From an uncultured Nitrososphaeraceae archaeon (GTDB taxonomy: Archaea > Thermoproteota > Nitrososphaeria > Nitrososphaerales > Nitrososphaeraceae), in contig CAVXZB010000032.1 in the NCBI GenBank assembly GCA_963765895.1, positions 1 to 64,000 on the forward strand: 64,000 bases of DNA, in the 5' to 3' direction. The translations under genes were made by a program, and so were the position numbers. The notes under the pieces are model-generated. The model was not told the DNA's origin. It ran no database searches and saw only the letters and a list, made by a program, of their open reading frames with translations. This document shows, in pieces, positions 4,012-29,984 of the stretch (positions are counted from its first letter, which is position 1; each line of letters begins with the position of its first letter).

Positions 4012-4337
4012 AGTGAATAGCCCATCCGAACAAAACCTAATAAACATTTTGGAGATAGATAGGTAAATAGAACTTGACTCAGCTACCATTATCGCTTTAA
4101 AATGAATTATCGATTTAGCCGAAACACACGTGGTCACTACAACACTAATTCCGATGAGCCCCTGCAACATAAAACTCAGGATGTAGTGAGAACCCTTATG
4201 ATGATGGGGGAGTCCGGCAATCCATGCTGCGGCCTTCATCATGGATGTTCTATGGTAGGAATAACGAAAATTAGATGGTAAATAGTACACTCATCCACAA
4301 TTATTTTGTTCCTTTATCTATTTCCTTATGACTTCAA

Positions 4338-5300
4338 GGCCATGTAGAAATCATCACAAAAATGACAATATTCATTAGCCTGTGCATGTTATAGGCTATG
4401 CATCTGAATGATAGTTCCCTGTTCTGTGTTTTTACTAGCCTTGAAGAAATATATTCTCCAAATAGTCGTTTTATGACAGACATTATGGTCTCATCCTTGT
4501 TTCGTTGATTGTACAATAGTTCGTTATATCCACGTTTCATCTGCTTTCTATATCTGCCATGTGTTCTCCATATCGGTACATGTTCATATCGAGCTGGAAT
4601 AACACTGAATGCATGCAAGGTTTCTCTTACCAACTGATGATTATCTTCATTATCATATCCCTTATCAGCTGTAACTACGGATAATGGTAGAATTTCAGCT
4701 ATTCTTGTTATGATTGGCTTGAAATCTACATTATCATGTCTTGTAGGAGCTCGTCTTATCCTTATGTTTCAGATAATCTGTTGTAATACATCGGCTCCAA
4801 TAGATAATTTCGCATATTTTCTTCTTGCTTCTATTCGTTCAGTCATAATACTGTGAAGCATGAGTTATTTTAAATCCTGTTGAATCTATTCCTACAAAGA
4901 TATGCTTCGTACAGCTAATTACAATGAATGACGAAATTATCTTCTCAAGCAGTGAATTGCTAATTCTGTCTGTCTGTAAACTTTTGCAATGTTGTAAAAT
5001 GAGGAATACGTGACAATCGTAGATACGATCTTAAGGTAATATGCTTCGACTAACCACTCGACAAACATCCTATAACTCTTACCTTCGTACTGTCTTATTG
5101 TAAGTAGATACTAAATGTTGCCATATCATAAATGCATGATTGCTCTTTCTGTGAAGAAACAATGGTATCCTTGAATGTTCTCAAGACACGGTAACATAGT
5201 ATCTAGCCAGCCTAACATATCTTGATTCTTTCAACATCCATATTGGATCATACGTCTTAGAAAGCTCTAACGGTATTCAGAACATGGTTTCTACAGAGCC
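4338..5300 (-). mobile_element. IS5-family element, copy A, broken transposase
   Basis: TIRs GGCCATGTAGAAATCAT / ATGGTTTCTACAGAGCC; 8-bp TSD GACTTCAA (4330-4337, 5301-5308); DDE remnants homologous to 9864..10748. Confidence 0.92.
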
Positions 5301-7020: not shown

Positions 7021-7183
7021 ATATTGTTTGATAAACCGCAAATGCGGATCTATCTATTCTAGTTTCTTTCCGACTTATACTGTACGTATAAGGCTCCTTT
7101 ACGGGACATCCGAACGAAAAATTTATAGTAACAAATTGGTTATTCAAACTTAAATTCTAGGAATTACACCATGACCTTCATAG

Positions 7184-7599
7184 AATGAACTTAAGCATCA
7201 TAATCCTCTTTTTCAGTGGCATTCTTTTCGGATCCATTCTTTATGTGTATTAACTCATACTATAAGTAATGCTAAAGAATTACAACAGAAAAAATTTCTC
7301 ACAATTATACTACTACCACTATTGCTATTCCTCAGGGCACAGTTTAGAGAGAAGTTACTTTCAAAAGATATATGCCCCCAAATACTGTTGTTCAATCGGG
7401 ATCTAAAATAACCTGGACTAATGAAGACAAATTACCTACACCATTACCAGTAGAAATTGCAGTAATGGTTACGATTGCATATTCAATTCTGGTATAATTG
7501 CATTAAATCCATCATATTCATATGTCTTTCTGTTTCTGGCATGTATCAGTATTATTGTATCATTTATGCATGGATGAGTGGGTAAGTAGTTGTTACTGA
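7184..7599 (+). pseudogene. Decayed plastocyanin/cupredoxin-family protein
   Basis: Fragments VVQSGSKITWTNED, FNSG, YQYYCIIYAWMSG (degenerate CxxHPWM copper motif) with stops and frameshifts. Confidence 0.6.
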
Positions 7600-7698
7600 T
7601 ATTAATATTCAGACAAGACTATTTTATATGTCACCACTACTTCAAAAAAACGAAATAATCCAAATGTTCATTGTAAAATAACTTATCTAACCTTAAAG

Positions 7699-8076
7699 TC
7701 ATTTCAATCCACTTTTCTTTAGTAGTTCCAATATCCTTTCGATTATTTTGTTGTGTGCTCCATCTTTGTCGATAGACACTCGTAATAAATAGTTATCATA
7801 CAATGGAAATGATGCAAGTTTAACTTTTTCTCTTTCTGAAAAACTGTATATGGTTCTACCAAATTCGGGGTCAAAATCTTTATTCATCTCATTCTTGAGA
7901 ACAAACTCCATATATAATTCCAATGACTTTTCATTATTTTCCATGGATTCTAAGCCCCGTTTCATTCCTCCTGCAATGAGTTTACCCATCCTATTTATGA
8001 TCCCAGCGAAGCGTATGGTAGAATCAAGTGTAAAAATATGATTGCATAATTGGTTAAGTGTATCTATGTCAAGCAT
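7699..8076 (-). CDS. DUF6659-like (roadblock/profilin-like) thaumarchaeal protein
   Basis: IRFAGIINRMGKLIAGG..DFDPEFG..REKV..SFP pattern; intact 125-aa ORF. Confidence 0.7.
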   Translation of the reverse strand: MLDIDTLNQLCNHIFTLDSTIRFAGIINRMGKLIAGGMKRGLESMENNEKSLELYMEFVLKNEMNKDFDPEFGRTIYSFSEREKVKLASFPLYDNYLLRVSIDKDGAHNKIIERILELLKKSGLK

Positions 8077-8804
8077 AATGTATTCTAAAGAAATGTTCTA
8101 AGCCTTAAGCATTTTGAATTCCTCTAATATGTTATAAATTTTACCAGACCTATTGTCTACATGTATTTGAAACTGAAAGCAGGGTTATTTTTTTAGGAAT
8201 GAGGGATAGAAAAACGTTCCATTTTCATTTACTTACTGAATTTCAATTTTATCAAGGAAAATTATTCGGATACATATTAACTTTTTCCCTACTATTTTCC
8301 CAACTATCTGTCTACACCTATAAAATATATGGACATAAGAGAATTCGTCATGAAATACAGATGGATGACCACTAATATTTATATAGCAATATTCTATGTT
8401 ACTGTGTTACTATAAAGAGTATTCAGGCTGTCAATTGCTTTAGAATTGCTAGCTTATAACTGAGACTACATATTTATGGACAAGTAGACGAAGATGCGAT
8501 GAATATGACGTTCCCTTATCTTTCCGTAGGTTGTTGCTAATAATCGAAATTCTATATTACCACCAGTGTCTGATATGTCATGGTGTCAGTATGTTTTATC
8601 CTAATTCTAGTATACAATAGGTAGCAGCACCAGCATTTGTATTCGATTATCGCTATAGTCTTGAATACTTATTTTTATGTATCAGATGAGTCTGATAAGA
8701 AATTATGATAGGCATACGTTGTAACTTAAAGCAGCAGGAAAGCAAAAAAAAGATTATGAGACACGCTTAAGCATTTTAATTTCGTACTACAAATGTAATT
8801 AGAT

Positions 8805-9351
8805 TTAAGGAAAGGTCAATCTAAAACTATTTTCTCCTCCATTTCTTTCTAAAACTGATCCTTGCTTATAGGCTATTGTTCCTGTAATTAGATATTTGGA
8901 TTTAGATTTGGTATTCTTATTTATCCCTTCCATAATTTTATTCCAAACAACTTGATTTACGTTACTTTTGTGTGCTACTTGTTTATCCTTTAATATTACT
9001 TCAGTACCGCTTACAATGGGATAAATTGTTGCTGATGATGCCAAAAAGCCCTCTAACATTTCTCCGATGCTTCCTGATACAATTCTTGTTCCATCTAGTG
9101 ACACATCGGTACTGAATTTCCTCTACAATCACTGTTCCTTTTCTTGGGTTATATGCAGAAAAATCTACTTGAACATCAGCTGATGTATTGCTTGTTGGTT
9201 TTATAACAATGTTTTTTATTGAGAATTTAATTGGTTGTCTCTGATCTTGTGCCATGACTTCACTCGTTGCTACTGCAGATGTAGTTATCACTAATAGCAA
9301 TGTCACTAACGATGTCGTAATCAAAATCAAGCAAATTTGTTTAGACATCAC
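8805..9351 (-). pseudogene. Frameshifted exported beta-sandwich (LEA_2-like) protein
   Basis: Signal peptide in 9001..9351; continues into 8805..9104 via a frameshift near 9105. Confidence 0.5.
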
Positions 9352-9593
9352 GATACCTGAAATTTCGAGTACACCAAATTATGTAGAATAAATTATACTA
9401 TAAAAGGAAATCTGCTTACAGATATTTGCGGATAATATCAATTTCTCATCCATAGCCTAAACATAATCTATCAATTTTATAATTCTAACCGAAATTAATA
9501 TAATAAAGATATTCCAGCCTTAAATTTATATTAACGAAATAATACCTTGGCACTTCTTGTCTTATTGTATATTGTATAATGTTATAGGGAAAT

Positions 9594-9836
9594 TTGATAG
9601 TTCTTTGGCGTGAAGCATGGTTAAAACCACTCTACAATTCGGATATTGGATCTGATTTCTGTAACTTTTGTAACCGGAGGTTTGATGAACTTGATTTTGT
9701 TACATCTTGCGAATTTTGTGAAATAGGAATAATTCATACTAACTGTTCAGACAAACATATTTTGAGTAGTCATAAAAACGAAATTTTGAATAAAATCGAA
9801 TCACAACGAGATAGGCGTCTGCATGATTATCAGTAA
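9594..9836 (+). CDS. Small Cys/His-rich putative zinc-binding protein
   Basis: CNFC..CEFC..HxxC..H..H pattern. Confidence 0.55.
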   Translation: MIVLWREAWLKPLYNSDIGSDFCNFCNRRFDELDFVTSCEFCEIGIIHTNCSDKHILSSHKNEILNKIESQRDRRLHDYQ

Positions 9837-11685: not shown

Positions 11686-13741
11686 GTGAAGAAAATGAGC
11701 ACTAATATTAACTTTCCAGAAGATAAAGATAAATCTTTTCCTCTGGAACTTGAATCTTTACCACTATCAGATAAGTTAAAACAGAAAGGTCTAGTCCAGA
11801 GCATAACAATCCATAGAAAAGCAAACACCATCAAAGTAATACTGAATCATGGCTCAAATGCTCCTATTATATCGCCTATATATCCTACTTGGAATAGAAC
11901 GATAAGCAGTTTTGAAACACAAGCTAAAAGGAAGAATCTGTCAGAGGGGGATATAGTTGACATCCAAGATGTATTTGATGCTAACCACGAAAGAATTGCA
12001 TATCATCTGATTGATAATTCCGGCCAAAAAATTCATCTAACTGATAAGGCAAAAGAGGAGATTCTACTTGCCATCGACAAGTTAAGATCAGATCATAAGG
12101 ATATTACAATTGACGAATGGACAAGTACGATGCTAAAAAAATATCAAGATCTGAAAACAGTGATTGAAAGAAATATGCCAAATCTCTGGCCAGGTCTTGA
12201 ATTTGAATTGTCCATACTTAGAATTCTTAATCTAAAAGATTGTACTTTACCATTTGCAGGAATTATTCTGGGCCCGCCGAGTTCGCTCAAGACACAAGTC
12301 ATAGAGCTTCTACGAAATTGGCCACACACATTTTACACAGATAACTTTAGTGCCAAATCCTGTGTATCTCATACTACAGCGGTGTCCAGAGATCAATTGG
12401 CAGAAATTGATTTACTACCTAAAATAAAGAATAGATGCTTCCTGACTCCAGAATTAGCACCTACTTTCGCAGCTAGGGATGATGATTTAGTACAAATTCT
12501 TGGTATCATGACTCGCATATTGGACGGCAACGGATATGAAAGTGACAGCGGCGCGCAAGGACATAGAGGATACAACGGCGAGATTATGTTCACCTGGGTA
12601 GGTGCAGCAGTTGACATTCCACACAAAGTCCACAAGTATCTTGGAACTGTGGGTCCTAAATTTGACTTTATGAGGCCACCAATAATCCATAAGAAGTCAG
12701 AATCAGATTATATGGAGCAAATAAAAAATGGCGACTTTAAAAGAAAAATAGCTGAGATAAAAGAAGCCCTGCTTGATTACCTAAAGTGGTTTGAAATATG
12801 TCCAGATATGACAAGTGATGAAAAATATGGCTTAGTAAAAATGTCCAGGAATTTTGAACGAGATGATGAAATCTCATTAACGTACGTTATTAGACTCGCA
12901 TTCCTACTTACTCAACTGCGAGGTGTAGCACCAACATGGAATACTTACGGCACACAAGGGTCTGACTATGCATACACACTACCGACTATAGAAGAACCTG
13001 ATAGAGCGATACAGCGGACTAACAAATCTAGCCAGAGGACATGCCTTATCGCAAGGCCGCAACTACATTGCACTAGACGATATCCCAATGATTATTAACG
13101 TCGTACTCTCCACTGCATCAAAGGAACGTGTAACCATATTTGATCTATTACTTGCACATAATGGTAGGCTTACTGCTTCAGAAATTTCCATGTCGCTAAA
13201 TATGGCGTCTCCCACTGCGCGGAGAATTATGCTAGAGCTTTGGGTTCTCAGATTAGTAGACAAAGATAAACCTGAAGACAATACCTCAGCAGAGCAGATA
13301 TCTCTAAGACCTGAATTTGAGTGGTTTATAACTGAAGAATTTAGGAAGTTAAGGTATAGTGGCGAGGTAAACAACCAATCTGTTTCACCGAAGATAGGTG
13401 AAGGGGTGAAAGAAAAAATACTCCTTAATAGTGAGGATTTTTTACCAGCTGAAAGTTCACCATTACCAGACAAAGAGGCTACATTTTGGAATATATACGA
13501 TAAATTAGAAGATGAACAGAAAGGATTGGAGGATCACATGGAAGTAGATAAGACCACTGTCGGCGGCTGGGAACTAAAACAGAGGCTTGTTTCTAGCGGA
13601 AAATTCCACACCTCAGATGCGGCAATGATGTTAGAGGAAATGGTCAGTAAGGGGGAATTGAAGGAGGTAACAGTTGATACCTATGTCAGACGATCTAATA
13701 AAAGCGAAGTAGACAATACGGAAAGAAAAATTCCCCCTTAG
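11686..13741 (+). CDS. AAA+ (MCM-like) ATPase/helicase with C-terminal wHTH; one frameshift near 13015
   Basis: Walker A-like GPPSSLKT, LTPE, ILDGNGY..GAQG; the shifted frame gives LTNLARGHALSQGR and joins ORF 13088..13741 (HTH LTASEISMSLNMASPTARRIM). Confidence 0.7.
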
Positions 13742-18214: not shown

Positions 18215-18438
18215 CCATGAATAAAGCAAATTCTGGATGTGTAGGCAGATGAGGCGCGCATCCCTATAGTCCTGAATGCTGCCTTAATGATATCTATACA
18301 GAGAACACTAAATCGATCAAAGTGGATATCATTAGGAATCTGTCAGGCTATGCTAAATAATGAGACCGTTAATTGGATGAGCACATTTAGAAAACTTGGT
18401 TTGAACGCATGATAATCTCGCATAAAAATAATCAAGGA

Positions 18439-22151: not shown

Positions 22152-22210
22152 TACAAGGGGTAACTTTTCTTTCACCCCCTCACAGAAAGAAATTTACCCC
22201 CTTAGTAGTA
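22152..22210 (+). repeat. Hairpin site S6
   Basis: TACAAGGGGTAACTTTTCTTTCA - CCCCCTCACA - GAAAGAAATTTACCCCCTTAGTAGTA. Confidence 0.9.
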
Positions 22211-23669: not shown

Positions 23670-25736
23670 TTATTGAATAATTATATCCTTAAATATTTTC
23701 TCATTTCTTATGTTGTCAAAGTCTTTTTCCAGCTTCGCTAATTCTCGATATTTCGGCCCGCCTATTCTAATTGCCTGAATTAAATCCGACATACCTTCCT
23801 TGAAACGCCCTATTTTAACTTTCGAACATGCTCTGTTGTAAAATGGAACAGCATCAATTGGAGATTCAAGGTAATTTTGCACCTCTATAGCATTATCGTA
23901 ACTTTGTATAGCACTGTTGTAATCTCCAAGTTTAGTATAAGCTAAACCTCTGTTATACCATGCATCATAATACTGAGGCCTAATCTTGATAGTCTCATCA
24001 TAAGATTTTATTGCTTCACTGTATCTACCTAATTCATAAAACGCCAGACCTCTGTTATACCATGCAAAAGGATAGTCAGCCCTTATCTTTATGGAGGTAT
24101 CGTAACTTTGTATAGCACTGTTGTAATCTCCAAGTTTAGCATAAGCTAAACCTCTGTTATTCCATGCAACAATATATTTAGGATCTACTCCAATAGATTC
24201 ATCATAGTATTGAACAGCTTCCTTGTAATTGCCTAATTCATCAAGGATTTTACCTTTGTTATATAATGCTTCTAGGAAATTTGGATTTAGATCAAGAGCT
24301 TTGTCGCAGTTTTCTAGAGCTTTGTCATATTTCTTCAGCTTATAATATGTAATTGCAATAATCATACCGAATAGCTTAGCCTTTTTGTCATCAGACAGAT
24401 AAACTGGAATCTCTTTGATCGTATCTTCGACTATATTGAGAGGCACAGAGCTAATGAGTGGGATTGTGTACAAAGTCTCTATAACTGAAGCTGCTAATTC
24501 TTCATTGTTAAGGTTTAATATCAAATCCACTGCTTTCTTAATGTATCCTTTATTTTTAAGAAGCTTTCTTTTGTCGTTTGGATCATATAAATATGAAAGC
24601 AGCTCAATATCCCATTTAGGGTGAATCGTCTTCCATCCTATGACGGGTTGAGAATATAGGGTTGCACCTTCAAGATCAAGAGCATAACTTAAAAGGTCCA
24701 TATCTTCTAACAGTTCTTCAGATATTGGCAAGCCTGCAATATCTAATAATGAACAGACAAGCATAGTTGTTATCTTCATTTCATAAGCCTCTTCAGATTG
24801 CTCTGCATCACTAAGATAATTCTCATATCTTCTTTCGACATCGCTTCTTAATCCCTTTCCAAAAACAGAGAACTTGACCATTAAAGGATGTCCTTTTGCT
24901 GCATCATTGTAGATTTTTTCAGAAATTAATTGATATGCATACTCTTCTGACCAAGCATTCAAAGGAGTTCTTATTTGCCGGATTAAATGCTCTATGTTAC
25001 CATACCGTTTGATGAAGGCTTTAGTTTCTTCCTTGGTATAGGTTGGCAATTTGAATCTGAAAGTTGGTCTTGCTCTAAATTTTCTTATTGATTCTCTGTA
25101 AATTCCTTCTTTTACCTTTCCCAGTCTATCATTAACATACCAATCAAATTCTGGCAGCCCGGCGGTTAAGACGAATCTTACACTGGCATGTGATTCATAA
25201 TTTGACAGCTCATCCATAACGTAAAAAATTGCGGCAGTTCTTTCACTATGAACGTCATCTACGGCAACCAAGACGTTATTATTATTATTCAAAAAGTTTT
25301 CGATGAAATGTATAATCTCTGTGCCATTTGTAAGATCTGAATCACCAAAATTATATAGTATTTTAAATCCTTTTTCAAAGTACTCGCATATAATTTCCAT
25401 TAGAATAGTACTTTTAGAAGTGCCCATTTCACCTACTAACAATACCTGATGATGATTTTCGATTTTCGTCTTTATTTGATCCACAATGCTTCTTCGAAAT
25501 TCATAATGTTCCTTAATCGATGATAACTTGAATGAAAACCCCTCTTTCCAATCATCAAAGTCTTGATCTGTAGCCTTATAATCGTCAAAGTAAGTCGGTT
25601 TGAGTAAGTTCAATCCAAAGCTTCTCGCTTCATTGGCTAGACCAATTACAACATCTCCGCCGATGTGAATGTTTTTTCCAATAAATATTCCCTTACCACT
25701 AACGTCGCCTGTCTGAATACGATCACCAGTAGACAT
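23670..25736 (-). CDS. STAND/NLR-like P-loop NTPase with C-terminal TPR array
   Basis: Walker A GEMGTSKS, Walker B VLVAVDD, GHPL (GxP), about 6 TPRs (AWYNRGLAY..LG.Y..AI..YD). Confidence 0.85.
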   Translation of the reverse strand: MSTGDRIQTGDVSGKGIFIGKNIHIGGDVVIGLANEARSFGLNLLKPTYFDDYKATDQDFDDWKEGFSFKLSSIKEHYEFRRSIVDQIKTKIENHHQVLLVGEMGTSKSTILMEIICEYFEKGFKILYNFGDSDLTNGTEIIHFIENFLNNNNNVLVAVDDVHSERTAAIFYVMDELSNYESHASVRFVLTAGLPEFDWYVNDRLGKVKEGIYRESIRKFRARPTFRFKLPTYTKEETKAFIKRYGNIEHLIRQIRTPLNAWSEEYAYQLISEKIYNDAAKGHPLMVKFSVFGKGLRSDVERRYENYLSDAEQSEEAYEMKITTMLVCSLLDIAGLPISEELLEDMDLLSYALDLEGATLYSQPVIGWKTIHPKWDIELLSYLYDPNDKRKLLKNKGYIKKAVDLILNLNNEELAASVIETLYTIPLISSVPLNIVEDTIKEIPVYLSDDKKAKLFGMIIAITYYKLKKYDKALENCDKALDLNPNFLEALYNKGKILDELGNYKEAVQYYDESIGVDPKYIVAWNNRGLAYAKLGDYNSAIQSYDTSIKIRADYPFAWYNRGLAFYELGRYSEAIKSYDETIKIRPQYYDAWYNRGLAYTKLGDYNSAIQSYDNAIEVQNYLESPIDAVPFYNRACSKVKIGRFKEGMSDLIQAIRIGGPKYRELAKLEKDFDNIRNEKIFKDIIIQ

Positions 25737-25779
25737 ATTACTATCTAAATATAATCAGTACGGATATTGAGAGAATCTG

Positions 25780-26271
25780 TCACCTACCTTGTTTTACAGC
25801 ATCGACAATTGCCTCTACTCCCTTGCCTATAAGTTTGCTAAAAGGAGATAGAGGTGTAAATGTGGTAATAATTTCGGCTGCTGAGGGAAGAGCATTCAAT
25901 ACTTTATCAACAAGGTCAACCGTCTGTGCTTGAATATTTGTCTGTTTTACAAAATTTATCTTCTCTTTGCCTGGGGTAACATCTTCAACTTCTTTTCCAA
26001 GTCTAACAATGGCTTCTTGTATCTGGTTTGTCTTTTCTTCTGGAACTTTATATTTTTGAAATTCTTTATTGAGGTTTTCAGAAAACTTTCTTAAGCTCTC
26101 GGAATATTCACTCGGTACCTTTTCAAGTTCCTTAGTTAGATTATTAATATTTATTGTCCCGATGTCAATATCCTTACCTATAACAATGCCTTCTCCACTT
26201 ACGGTGCCCACTGAAATAACATCTCCAGATGGCGATTGTTCATTAACACTATTTTTTTCATTAATTTCCAA
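25780..26271 (-). CDS. Small helical protein sharing its N-terminal motif with the downstream NTPase-TPR gene
   Basis: GDVISVGTVSGEGIVIGKDIDIG then a helical domain; 43 bp upstream of 23670..25736. Confidence 0.75.
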   Translation of the reverse strand: MEINEKNSVNEQSPSGDVISVGTVSGEGIVIGKDIDIGTININNLTKELEKVPSEYSESLRKFSENLNKEFQKYKVPEEKTNQIQEAIVRLGKEVEDVTPGKEKINFVKQTNIQAQTVDLVDKVLNALPSAAEIITTFTPLSPFSKLIGKGVEAIVDAVKQGR

Positions 26272-27147: not shown

Positions 27148-29984
27148 TCATGCATTATTATTTTTAATCGGCTTTCCATCTGAAGTATATTTTGTTATTC
27201 TTCTTCCAAACGATTTAGCAGGTTGCTCAGTATAGCTTGTATTGCGCTCCTTGAGGTCTTGTAGGATTGAATCTTCATAATCCAATTCTTTTGGTACCAT
27301 ATATCCAGACATGAGATACTTATTTTTCATTTGAATCTCTGTATTCTTTCGTAACATAATCTCTGTTCTTGATGGGTTTTCGAACTCAATAATGAAACTA
27401 CAATGGAAATTTGTATCGGCAATTTTAGTATTTGATAGATCAGCTCCTGAAAGATTTGCTCCAAAGAGAATGGTATTTGATAGATCAGCTCCTGAAAGAT
27501 TAGCTCCAGAAAGATCAGCATTTGATAGATCAGCTCCTGAAAGGTTAGCTCCAGAAAGAATAGTACGTGATGCATTAACACCCATAAGCATAGAATAGGT
27601 AAATTTCGTATTTAACATATTTGCTCCTGAAAGGTTAGCTCCAGAAAGGTTAGCTCCAGAAAGATCAGCATTTGATAGATCAGCTCCAGAAAGGTTAGCT
27701 CCAGAAAGATTTGCACGGATATCAGCTCCAGAAAGGTTAGCTCCAGAAAGGTTAGCTCCAGAAAGGTTAGCTCCAGAAAGATCAGCATTTGATAGATCAG
27801 CTCCTTGGAGGAATTCAAAAGATAAATCAACAGCCCTTAATCTTTTGGGTAGCAAAGATACAGTGCGACTTGTCTTAACTATAAGATCAGATAATATTTT
27901 TTTATCAATGTTCATTCGGTATTCCTCTAGCTTATTTAACACGTATAAAGATAACCAACGATGAATCCAAAGTTCACGATATCTAGAGAGAGGTAATTCA
28001 CACATGTTCCATAGTCCTATCTTTTTTACTTCAGAGTTTTCTGTTTGAAATATTATTTCCTCATCTTCATAATATCTTTGTGCATTTCGGATAAGATTTC
28101 GTTTAATTTGTGATGGAGATACATTCTGTTGTTGGTTCTGAGGAACTAATGATTTTATCAGAGTGGTGGTATATTCGTTTAGACTATTATTATTAGTATT
28201 AAATAATTCCAATAATCCATCAAGAAATAGCATTGTCTCTGCAGTGGGAATACCCACATTAAGATAATTTTTCTTGTCTTCCAGTATGCTCTCAATATAG
28301 TATTCTGCAAGAAGATATTCTTGAAAGCTTTTGTGAATAAAATCTACGGTCTTATCTGTAGTAGTCTGACCTTGTAAATAAAAGTAAGATGTAAGAATGG
28401 GTTCAAATAATTCTTTCTGTAGCGTCTTATCGAAGCCATAGATCCTAAGTTTATCTATGAGAACGCTTTGTTTTAAGATATCCGGATAGTACATCTGTCT
28501 TAATGCGGCTATCTTGCGTAAGATTTTCTTTTCTTCAGAATAAAACTGCGCGTATAATGATATTCATCAGCTACCTGTTTGTGCTTGCCTCTTATAATCG
28601 AATGAATGAATCCTTCATAGATTAATGCCCTTGTCATCTGCGTATTCACAGAATCCTTTAGCATTATTTCATCTTCTAATTTTGACTGCATCATTATGCA
28701 GAACATCCGACAAAATAAAGGCTTACGAATTTCTTCTTCCGTTAATTTATAATTTTGAAGCTTATAAAAATTAAATTCTAATCCATATTTGTAGAAAAAT
28801 TCATTTACTTGCACTCTACTCAATGGAAGCAGTCTAATATAATGGGATATGTTGAGTTTTTCAGGTATGCCCGCTTCCAATCTTGTTGTGATTATATATT
28901 TCATATTTGGAAACGCCTCATCGCTTTGTAACTCATCAAGAAACTCCTTTAGCTTCTCTTCATCATCGCCGTATTCGTCCAAGCCGTCACATATAAGAAG
29001 TATCTTTCTCTTCTTGCCCGCTCCTCCGGGAGCTATTAACTTTAGGATTTCATCAAGACTATGTTCCTCTTCATCTACAATTTTAAGTTTGCCTTTTAAG
29101 GGAATGAATATAGGAATGTAGCTATTTTCGTTGTTGGGATTTTCAAGAAATGTAGAAGCCATGGTAGAAGTCAAATGGATAGACAAAGAGGTTTTTCCGA
29201 TTCCAAAAGGAGCACCGAGCACGATACGACGTTTGCCTTTAGCAAGGTGGTCTAATACAAGGGATTTTGCTTTTGGCGTCGTTTCACTATCAAAATATGC
29301 TGAGAAATAGATATCTCCCTCCTCCCACGTCTGAACACTTCTATTGACAGCGTTGTTTTCAATATAATACTCGTCCAAATACTTCCCATCTATGCGATTT
29401 GATTTGTAAATAAGTGATCTTGAATATTCAAGATGCTTTAATAGGTTTTTAGTTCGCTCTTTGTGCGCGAACATGTCTTTGAATGGTTTAATCGCTGGAT
29501 CATTATCCGCCTTTTCTTCTAGAGATATATTGAAATTAAATATAAAATTGTGTATCAAATCCTTATGTTGCTCGTAACTTAAAATATTGCATAAAAGGGA
29601 TCTAAACCTTGTGATGACGGGGTGGTCTGGCAAATATGAGTTCCATCCTTCAGTATCAATAAAAGTGTCAAATAGTTCCCTCTTGATTTTTTTACTTTTA
29701 ACATTGGAAAAGACAGCAGGTTTCTTTCAAAAAACATCCGAAATTGCCAACGCAATTGGCAAAATAATAGGAAATAAAAGCTTTGAAGATAATGTCTTGG
29801 CAAGGGCCGGAAGCATTGGCGCTTTAATTAGTATTGGTATTGGAATCTATCAACAAATTAAATACGACCTGCAGTCTAAAGAAGAGCAGGCTTTTGCTTC
29901 ATTAATAAAAATCGCATTTGAAGCAGCGCACGATTCTTTACCTGAAAGAGATGAAATATCAATAAAGGATGAAGGTATATTCAT
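27148..29984 (-). pseudogene. NACHT NTPase with C-terminal pentapeptide repeats; frameshift near 28530 and inverted 5' segment
   Basis: Walker A GAPFGIGKT, Walker B LLICDGLDE, ITTR, FIHKSFQEYLLA, (A[DN]LSG)n; the N-terminus is recoverable by inverting 29702-29971. Confidence 0.85.
27430..27805 (-). repeat. 15-bp periodic coding repeat (pentapeptide repeats)
   Basis: (GGTTAGCTCCAGAAA)n-type units encoding [10 protein letters not shown]. Confidence 0.9.

Follow-up and report, generated by a model that had tools for sequence, protein, structure and literature searches.

The window analysed here is a stretch of 64,000 nucleotides from an uncultured Nitrososphaeraceae archaeon (GenBank assembly GCA_963765895.1, contig CAVXZB010000032.1, forward strand) and represents contig C32 of the 4.9-Mb assembly, which consists of 88 contigs. 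According to the list of open reading frames (ORFs), two adjoining genes are encoded on its minus strand. The upstream gene (25780-26271, TTG start) encodes a small protein of 163 amino acids (AA) and the downstream gene (23670-25736, ATG start) an NLR-like protein of 688 AA, referred to as the sensor in the following. A spacer of 43 nt (25737-25779) separates both genes. In the small protein, a β-motif occupies residues 15-43 (26143-26229, minus strand), with a 23-residue core at residues 16-38. It is followed by a helical-bundle domain (residues 44-163; 25783-26142, minus strand), which contains the conserved C-terminal element FTPL.PFSKLIGKG..IV. The sensor carries its copy of the motif at residues 3-32 (25641-25730, minus strand; core at residues 4-26), followed by an nSTAND5 NTPase domain (Pfam residues 65-192; 25161-25544, minus strand) with the Walker A motif at about residues 102-109. 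The region of TPR repeats (residues ~456-686; 23679-24371, minus strand) is presumed to be the sensing part; here, the Pfam family TPR_1 matched in five stretches (E 2e-50) and the NCBIfam family TPR_END_plus at residues 632-686.

The original prediction, which was made from the letters of the window and its ORF list, had read both genes as a candidate archaeal NLR-amyloid signalling pair sharing 15 of 23 residues at the N-termini and being unrelated otherwise. Both quoted strings were found at the core positions given above, and 15 of the 23 residues are identical. With BLASTP, the sole N-terminal local alignment between the two proteins spans 74 columns with 35% identity (E 1.7e-6, no composition correction). 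The next alignment piece has an E-value of 0.18, and the remainder of the two proteins is thus unrelated, as had been claimed.

The small gene and the sensor gene are probably co-transcribed. In the 43-nt spacer, no terminator-like site was found in a scan whose consensus is bacterial and, hence, weak or uninformative for an archaeon. A 223-nt contig from an RNA library falls within the NTPase gene, but was not counted as transcription, since DNA carry-over is possible. Sequencing runs containing at least one fifth of the sampled words were soil metagenomes according to their labels, and a contig from an independent soil study spans the junction of both genes.

Character of the motif and its distribution in the genome

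The strict motif pattern was searched in all stop-to-stop ORFs of ≥ 40 AA of the whole assembly (43,049 ORFs) and matched two of them, which are the small protein and the sensor. A hidden Markov model (HMM) built from the two motif copies found both proteins at E-values of about 1e-18, with the next match among the ORFs of the genome at E 0.87. When the HMM was built from 38 motif copies, both proteins were found at E 1e-10 and the next match at E 1.8. As a control, 2,582 pairs of adjoining ORFs in the genome were compared by the best 23-residue window inside their first 90 residues. A median of 6 identities was obtained, with at least 15 in 11 pairs. Seven of these 11 pairs were put through BLASTP: six are tandem paralogues, which are alike over more than 120 residues, and the seventh is the pair of small protein and sensor, in which the likeness is N-terminal only. 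Between the motif-coding DNA of the two genes, 44 of 69 bases are common, and the same codon is used for 6 of the 15 identical residues. Since the synonymous sites have diverged, the likeness is maintained at the protein level and does not stem from a fresh duplication.

The composition of the motif was calculated for 37 copies (1,048 residues) relative to the ORFs of the genome. Glycine (3.3-fold), isoleucine (2.4-fold), asparagine (2.0-fold) and valine (1.8-fold) are enriched, whereas leucine is depleted to 0.08-fold and proline is absent. The values for glutamine and lysine are 0.67-fold and 0.76-fold, respectively; one lysine is conserved. The autocorrelation of glycine peaks at a lag of six residues (0.35). 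In the small-protein family, the columns V21, G22, G26, G32, K33, I35, G38, I40, N41 and I42 are nearly invariant. In the motif of the sensor, this applies to I7, G10, G14, G16, I19, G20 and K21, which are invariant or nearly so among 10 aligned NTPases.

For bacterial amyloid signalling sequences (BASS), the preprint describing them reports that Q, N, G, V and I are increased and K, P and L decreased, and that β-helices are similarly biased (Dyrka et al. 2020, bioRxiv 10.1101/2020.01.06.895854). The present motif agrees with this composition, save for glutamine and the conserved lysine. In the AlphaFold2 model of the small protein as a monomer, residues 1-32 have a predicted local distance difference test score (pLDDT) below 50; by itself, the motif thus lacks a fold in this model.

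Recurrence of the pair and co-variation of the motif

The small-protein family was detected in 12 of 401 genomes sampled across the class, namely in 10 of 78 genomes of family f1, in one of 223 genomes of family f2 (a weak match) and in none of the other 18 families. When 238 genomes of f1 were considered, 28 contained the family, the genome of the window included. It is almost entirely confined to one archaeal family, the Nitrososphaeraceae. For analysis of the surroundings, 31 distinct small-protein loci from related Nitrososphaeraceae genomes and metagenomes remained once a duplicate locus and four large fusion proteins had been removed. Every ORF was scanned with the motif HMM, and any other motif-bearing ORF within 4 kb was taken as partner.

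A motif-bearing neighbour was found at 16 of the 31 loci. At 11 of them (the window, L026, L034, L055, L056, L057, L060, L061, L067, L068 and L069), an NTPase of nSTAND5 type is the partner, in most cases together with TPR repeats; as L067 has two, these are 12 proteins. Partial NTPase partners, cut by a contig end or broken by an insertion sequence (IS), scored below the Pfam cut-offs, yet share 40-62% identity with the sensor of the window. Eleven of the 12 NTPase partners share the strand of the small gene, which lies upstream in eight cases and downstream in three. Further partners are motif-TPR proteins without NTPase at three loci (L025, L062 with two, and L071) and proteins without any Pfam domain at two loci (L033 and L059). 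In the original prediction, a lack of co-conservation of the motif in homologous pairs had been named as a result which would speak against it; by the counts given here, the motif is co-conserved, in favour of the prediction.

Fifteen loci are without partner: in six, the flanking sequence is shorter than about 1.5 kb on at least one side, and five encode small proteins which lack the motif and have zinc-ribbon or other N-termini instead. A partner is present for 16 of 26 motif-bearing small proteins versus none of the five motif-less ones (Fisher's exact test, p = 0.018, a value which overstates the evidence because the loci are related). In the alignment of the small-protein family, 24 of 30 members keep the motif (26 of 31 loci according to the HMM), and it precedes the helical domain in these. 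This confirms the N-terminal position of the partner's motif, which had been pointed out as unusual.

Three versions of the motif were distinguished, each of which is found in the small protein as well as in its partner. Clade A (window, L034, P0003/P0011 and P0012) shows ..VSG.GI.IGK.I.IG. Clade B (L026, L055, L056, L060, L061, L067 and L068) has an upstream I.I.... extension followed by GDVIG.G.SG.GNIIGK, and GD and IGK are one residue closer to each other in either partner. Both proteins of clade C (L057) show SAGVIIG.NI..GDI.V, and this version also occurs in the NTPase P0236 and in the CHAT fusion P0058. For 10 pairs, the true pairings sum up to 128 identities versus 99.9 ± 9.1 in shuffled pairings (100,000 shuffles, p = 0.0024). 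With a MAFFT alignment of eight pairs, 118 identities were counted versus 102.4 ± 6.4, a value reached by 1.9% of all 40,320 permutations. The helical domains and the NTPase regions correlate in their identities (r = 0.39 over 45 comparisons), which indicates that the pairs are inherited as units. The anatomy of an NLR with a matched-motif partner, as originally proposed, is upheld by these data: an nSTAND5-TPR protein stands beside a small neighbour, the motif is conserved in both and it co-varies at the level of clades.

Some loci deserve mention in their own right. At L026 (2508-3077 and 4481-4879), the sensor is cut after 131 AA and the flanking ORFs are transposase-like by eye. At L025 (8140-8748), the small gene extends over two frames and a DDE-transposase gene (Pfam) follows directly downstream. 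Decay was also seen at L033 (3754-4269), L063, L065 and L070, and four small genes contain in-frame stops. Downstream of the broken small gene of L033, a protein of 189 AA is encoded (4307-4876, plus strand), which has a clade-A-like N-terminal motif, but neither an NTPase nor a Pfam family; it represents a third kind of motif carrier. A zinc-ribbon of the form CxxC...CPxCG precedes the motif in L022, L055 and P0010 as well as in L030, where the motif is degenerate, and it replaces the motif in L023 and L058. Of these zinc-ribbon members, L022, L023, L030 and L058 have no motif-bearing neighbour, and L055 has a divergently transcribed nSTAND5 NTPase with motif.

Architecture of the sensor and small-protein families

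The sensor matched the Pfam family PF25199 (nSTAND_NTPase5) with 44.5 bits at a cut-off of 34. The Walker A residues G102, G105, S107 and K108 are invariant in the 10 aligned NTPases. Profile match, Walker A motif and C-terminal TPR repeats place the sensor among the STAND proteins of the nSTAND5 clade. Neither NB-ARC nor NACHT is among its Pfam matches; in two homologues, NB-ARC was found below cut-off. The sensor is the only member of its NTPase subfamily in the genome. Its TPR region contains DNA repeats of 102 nt (23883-24182). One contig from a soil run omits exactly 204 nt at 23893-24098, i.e., two of the 102-nt TPR units, which may reflect either strain variation in copy number or collapse during assembly.

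For the NTPase module, 81 homologues were examined (80 from the search plus P0012), one of which is labelled as Candidatus Nitrosopolaris by its source. The HMM detected the N-terminal motif in 43 of the 81, and a few more have divergent or shortened versions. In other homologues, the N-terminus is formed by regions of 120-290 residues, which belong to at least three kinds and match neither Pfam nor NCBIfam: group 1 (P0205, P0206, P0210 and P0233), group 2 (P0197, P0203, P0223, P0225 and P0228) and group 3 (P0202, P0204, P0211, P0213, P0220, P0224 and others). Near residues 25-50, a hydrophobic segment which might insert into membranes is present in groups 2 and 3. Calculated for 19 residues, the Kyte-Doolittle mean peaks at 1.8-1.95 in all five group-2 proteins and at 1.0-1.8 in six group-3 proteins (≥ 1.5 in four of the six). 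In a quick maximum-likelihood tree of 82 NTPase regions (midpoint root, no bootstrap), the NTPases with long N-termini are nested among the motif-bearing ones, and the N-terminal type changed at least two to four times. Given these alternative domains in relatives, the motif occupies a swappable N-terminal slot in which NLRs hold their output or recruiting module.

A short element of group 1, EIITTGVKFLPSPFDKIA, resembles the C-terminal element of the small protein's bundle, but a profile comparison did not support homology. Homology of the bundle as a whole to the alternative N-terminal domains was likewise rejected (hhalign probabilities of 0.8, 4.2 and 12.6%).

The small protein is acidic. 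An AlphaFold2 prediction based on an alignment of 30 sequences gave a mean pLDDT of 80.5 and a predicted template modelling score (pTM) of 0.73. The structure prediction, which had been suggested as a check of the helical domain, yielded a confident bundle of five helices (54-73, 78-94, 107-127, 132-148 and 152-162; pLDDT mostly > 90). A Foldseek search of the bundle against the PDB gave no match with E ≤ 0.001, the best E-value being 1.1. In a search of PDB sequences with the family profile, only noise resembling coiled coils was obtained (best E 0.0026, a designed protein). An amphipathic helix had been predicted at the C-terminus; the last helix (152-162) is indeed amphipathic with a hydrophobic moment of 0.59, but this part of the protein is made up of two helices (132-148 and 152-162). 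The highest 19-residue Kyte-Doolittle mean of the small protein is 0.99, and no segment resembling a transmembrane helix is present. No Pfam family above cut-off and no NCBIfam family was found. The Pfam family Sec10_N remained below its cut-off (26.9 versus 27.4 bits) and was taken as helical noise, and a weak PADLOC match to CARF3 (E 0.0029) was disregarded.

Ten homologues of the small protein were found in a search of 5.8 billion proteins. Most of them retain the motif, and all except the frameshifted P0003 retain the C-terminal domain with the FTPL.PFSKLIGKG-like element. When 1.84 billion representatives were searched exhaustively with the profile, 342 proteins with E ≤ 1e-3 were obtained, mostly of 140-200 AA. 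The bundle is also part of larger proteins. It occurs in caspase-pentapeptide-bundle fusions, which may continue with TPR or TPR-S (L031, L032, L073, P0121 and P0158), and in the arrangements pentapeptide-bundle-caspase (P0144), pentapeptide-bundle (P0101), bundle-NHL (P0105), TPR-motif-bundle (P0047), CHAT-motif-bundle (P0058 and P0068) and TIR-TPR-bundle (L029). The fusion L032 on contig C75 (caspase-pentapeptide-bundle-TPR) is the only other copy of the bundle in the genome of the window. Its caspase domain is split across two overlapping frames (7108-7569 and 7529-9601, plus strand) by a frameshift or an assembly error.

The original prediction had assigned the role of effector to the small protein. 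Given the lack of a segment resembling a transmembrane helix and the fusions named above, the bundle is not obviously the killing part, and its association with caspase, CHAT and TIR makes a role as adaptor or in assembly as likely as an effector role.

At 10 of the 11 junctions which could be anchored (17 were tried), sequence of β-solenoid type, i.e., the motif or pentapeptide repeats, directly precedes the bundle. A general rule that the bundle always follows such an element is weakened by the TIR-TPR fusion, in which TPR lies immediately upstream. From its position, the motif may be a short, incomplete solenoid element which needs further copies in order to fold. Such a need would be the very property required for homotypic or templated assembly.

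Interpretation, related systems and genomic surroundings

We consider it fairly probable that the two genes constitute an NLR-type (STAND NTPase) module of soil Nitrososphaeraceae, the parts of which are coupled by homotypic assembly of matched β-motifs. Pairing and co-variation suggest that the sensor recruits its partner via the peptide, as cell-death sensors of fungi and bacteria do. STAND NTPases are known to oligomerise as a class. Accepting this for the nSTAND5 NTPase of the 688-AA sensor, binding of a ligand by the TPR repeats would lead to oligomerisation dependent on NTP. The slot for the output domain would hold just the 30-residue motif rich in Gly, Ile, Asn and Val with its six-residue glycine periodicity, and the 163-AA partner would combine the same motif, unfolded in the monomer, with a helical bundle of a new fold family. 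Upon activation, the clustered motifs of the sensor may form a β-solenoid or cross-β nucleus, which the motif of the partner could join through homotypic stacking. The helical bundles would be gathered in this way and the output switched on, with the bundle either acting directly or recruiting caspase, CHAT or TIR proteins bearing the same bundle. Physical contact and templating are what we infer from the arrangement, and possible roles in defence, cell death or antiviral response are proposed purely from the company these domains keep.

Several observations weigh against this explanation. Ten of the 26 motif-bearing small proteins are without motif-bearing neighbour; in at least four of these cases the contig ends within about 1.5 kb, but six have ample flanks, so that pairing is frequent, yet not obligate. 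Decay by in-frame stops or inserted IS elements was seen at several homologous loci. Within clade B, which is the largest, the true partner is not the best match; the signal lies between the three clades and, therefore, represents few independent events. The bundle HMM gave no significant N-terminal match in the 81 NTPase homologues, and the 'all-in-one' counterpart expected from the fungal and bacterial systems is accordingly missing among them. In PADLOC, no defence-system match was obtained for the NTPase. Furthermore, the motif has a conserved lysine and no enrichment of glutamine, unlike the typical composition of BASS.

The opposite extreme, that both proteins share the motif by chance, through low complexity or as the remnant of a recent duplication at the locus and are not linked in function, is contradicted by the data and extremely improbable. 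The motif is compositionally simple indeed, with G, I, N and V accounting for 64% of it. Yet its restriction to two neighbours among 43,049 ORFs, the recurrence of a motif-bearing neighbour at 16 of 31 loci, the co-variation between partners including a length change of one residue and the divergence of the codons (6 of 15 kept) all speak against this view. Quite unlikely, too, is an arrangement in which both motifs bind a common third component, such as a membrane or envelope site, a chaperone or a protease, or in which the small protein caps the sensor as a negative regulator. Co-variation at clade level would also be expected if both copies track a lineage-specific third partner, and 10 of 26 motif-bearing small proteins without linked sensor as well as motif-TPR proteins without NTPase (L025, L062 and L071) suit a third component or a cap. 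No candidate for such a component is conserved beside the pairs, however, and the motif sits in the output or recruiting slot of an NLR, where related NTPases have other domains instead. For NLR motifs matched in this way at the N-terminus, the precedent is homotypic contact (bioRxiv 10.1101/2020.01.06.895854).

Within the preferred explanation of coupling by the motif, an open-ended polymer of amyloid-like nature and a closed complex of adaptor type are weighted about equally. The former would make the motif a true amyloid signalling sequence, which forms a self-templating cross-β polymer as in HET-s/NWD2 and BASS, with the bundle as executioner. This narrower form, whose likelihood is contained in that of the coupling and does not add to it, is possible but on the doubtful side. 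Composition and length of the motif are as reported for BASS and β-solenoid motifs, the motif is disordered in the monomer model, the partner genes are adjacent and collinear, and the hydrophobic N-terminal segments of related NTPases (groups 2 and 3) recall the membrane-targeting output domains of NLRs. On the other hand, the bundle contains no transmembrane-like or strongly hydrophobic helix and matched no solved fold in Foldseek, including those of HeLo- and MLKL-type. In six fusion proteins, its neighbour is a protease or TIR domain, a more evident candidate for the executioner, and the conserved lysine together with the strict hexapeptide-like rhythm is atypical of BASS motifs as described in the preprint text of Dyrka et al.

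The closed complex is a slightly more tentative proposal, which we regard as unlikely when taken by itself. Here, the motif would be a non-amyloid adaptor in the manner of effector-associated domains (EADs) and form a closed, stoichiometric β-structure with its twin. The small protein would be two-headed like FADD or ASC, binding the sensor by its motif and, by its bundle, the bundles of caspase, CHAT or TIR proteins encoded elsewhere. This fits the occurrence of the bundle in several fusion architectures (caspase, CHAT and TIR) and the presence of sensor, small protein and a caspase fusion (contig C75) in the genome of the window. In contrast, no large fusion with the bundle is among the matches of the genomes G526, G540 and G551, which have several pairs and a completeness of 92-97%, and a bundle-bearing executioner is thus not always present. 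Pfam contains models of EADs, and neither protein matched an EAD family among the Pfam matches with E ≤ 0.01. The EAD features given by Kaur et al. agree with the pair in that one copy is on the terminus of a STAND core and the second in an adjacent gene, the domain is small and non-enzymatic, and adjacent copies are closest to each other; the EADs described there are globular α or α+β domains, however, and the present motif is a Gly-rich stretch of 30 residues which is unfolded in AlphaFold2 (PMC7159879).

Both ideas could be combined in a prion-like β-solenoid relay, which is speculative and rather improbable. The sensor would nucleate a self-templating polymer of the new motif with its hexapeptide rhythm, and the small protein would be the two-headed hub which gathers caspase, CHAT and TIR proteins via a 'death-fold-like' bundle. 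If true, this would be an archaeal counterpart of the adaptor layer formed by ASC and FADD when animal cells die, in organisms which are not known as multicellular.

In multicellular bacteria and a small number of archaea, BASS link Bell-domain proteins and NLRs encoded as gene pairs, the reported archaeal pairs being a couple from Methanosarcinales; the screen began from Bell proteins with NB-ARC or NACHT neighbours, and the Bell domain itself comprises about 100 AA and has a hydrophobic helix at the N-terminus (Dyrka et al. 2020, bioRxiv 10.1101/2020.01.06.895854). The present pair is similar to BASS in that a motif of about 25-30 residues, rich in G, N, V and I and poor in P and L, is found on the N-terminus of an NLR-like TPR NTPase and in a small helical neighbour. 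The genes are adjacent and mostly collinear (here 43 nt apart, with 11 of 12 related NTPase partners collinear), the motif can adjoin CHAT or TIR domains, and the 11 loci with nSTAND5-type partner exceed the at least five non-redundant pairs asked for in the BASS study. The differences concern the motif of the partner, which is N-terminal here and C-terminal in BASS effectors, the conserved lysine and the six-residue glycine rhythm of the present motif, and the partner itself, in which no trace of the Bell hallmark, a hydrophobic N-terminal helix, is seen. Moreover, the NTPase is of nSTAND5 type and not NB-ARC or NACHT, so that the screen of Dyrka et al. would have missed the pair. Finally, the present pair is from Nitrososphaeraceae and not from Methanosarcinales.

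With fungal HET-s/HET-S-NWD2 (and HRAM, sigma and PP), the pair shares a single motif copy at the NLR N-terminus and a further one on an adjacent effector, which in HET-s is unfolded until templated, as well as a composition of β-solenoid type. Apart from the different kingdom, the fungal motif is C-terminal to a pore-forming HeLo domain, and the fungal effector contains two pseudorepeats compared to one stretch of about five hexapeptide-like units here. Concerning a sequence relation to fungal motifs, Pfam gave no such family for either protein.

EADs couple STAND, VMAP or GTPase cores to effectors (Kaur, Burroughs, Iyer and Aravind 2020, PMC7159879; 2021, PMC8195603). As in these systems, one copy is located on the terminus of a core NTPase and a second one in an adjacent gene together with another domain, also seen in the CHAT-motif-bundle fusions P0058 and P0068. 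Associations with caspase, CHAT, TIR, pentapeptide and TPR are common to both. Adjacent EAD copies are closest to each other, which holds here across the three clades, but not within the largest one. EADs are small globular α or α+β domains, whereas the present motif is Gly-rich with no own fold in the model, and effectors fused directly to the core, as in EAD systems, were not found in the 81 NTPase homologues. A term search of PMC7159879 and PMC8195603 gave no mention of nSTAND5 or Thaumarchaeota. The EACC1-caspase system (PMC7159879) is alike in that a small constant protein is linked to caspase proteins of varied architecture. EACC1 has one conserved transmembrane helix according to that text, whereas the small protein has none and its linked gene encodes an NTPase; identity of the small protein with EACC1 was therefore rejected.

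The module resembles BASS, HET-s and EAD systems in its logic, yet it is no member of a described family. New are the archaeal lineage, the other NTPase clade, the N-terminal position of the motif on both proteins and the partner domain. No description of the pair was found in the literature searched; supplementary tables of the BASS and EAD papers might list members. The matched-motif logic of NLRs would be extended to Nitrososphaeraceae, to another NTPase clade, to a mirrored topology and to a new partner domain, which is also connected with caspase, CHAT and TIR proteins. With two peptides of about 30 residues and three natural specificity variants as built-in controls, the system is compact and testable, and it bears on signalling by templated assembly in archaea and the link of such signalling to multicellularity. 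For genome annotation, two unannotated families, the motif and the bundle, are defined. Nitrososphaeraceae are globally important soil nitrifiers, and ammonia oxidation is attributed to the present archaeon from its family placement alone.

The pair is located in a variable stretch of the window, which contains two transposase genes, an integrase fragment and a split NACHT-pentapeptide gene. A dispersed intergenic repeat of about 33 nt with the core GAAAGAAATTTACCCCCTTAGTAG is present at 13721, 18191, 18479, 19488, 22013, 22185, 26720 and 30612, and inverted copies lie near 18427, 19437, 22142 and 30561. Allowing ≤ 4 substitutions, the genome contains just 17 matches, six of them in the window and one on contig C75. 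The repeat may be a regulatory site or a small mobile repeat. In the original prediction, the pair was said to be carried between 'sites S6 and S7', which are most likely the copies at 22185 and 26720; no evidence was found that these two repeats carry the pair.

The split gene is a second NLR-like gene at 27148-29633 on the minus strand. It comprises a NACHT ORF (28509-29633) and a pentapeptide-repeat ORF (27148-28494) with 14 nt between them. Since the pentapeptide ORF starts like the C-terminal part of a NACHT module, both are apparently one gene which has been split by a stop codon or a frameshift.

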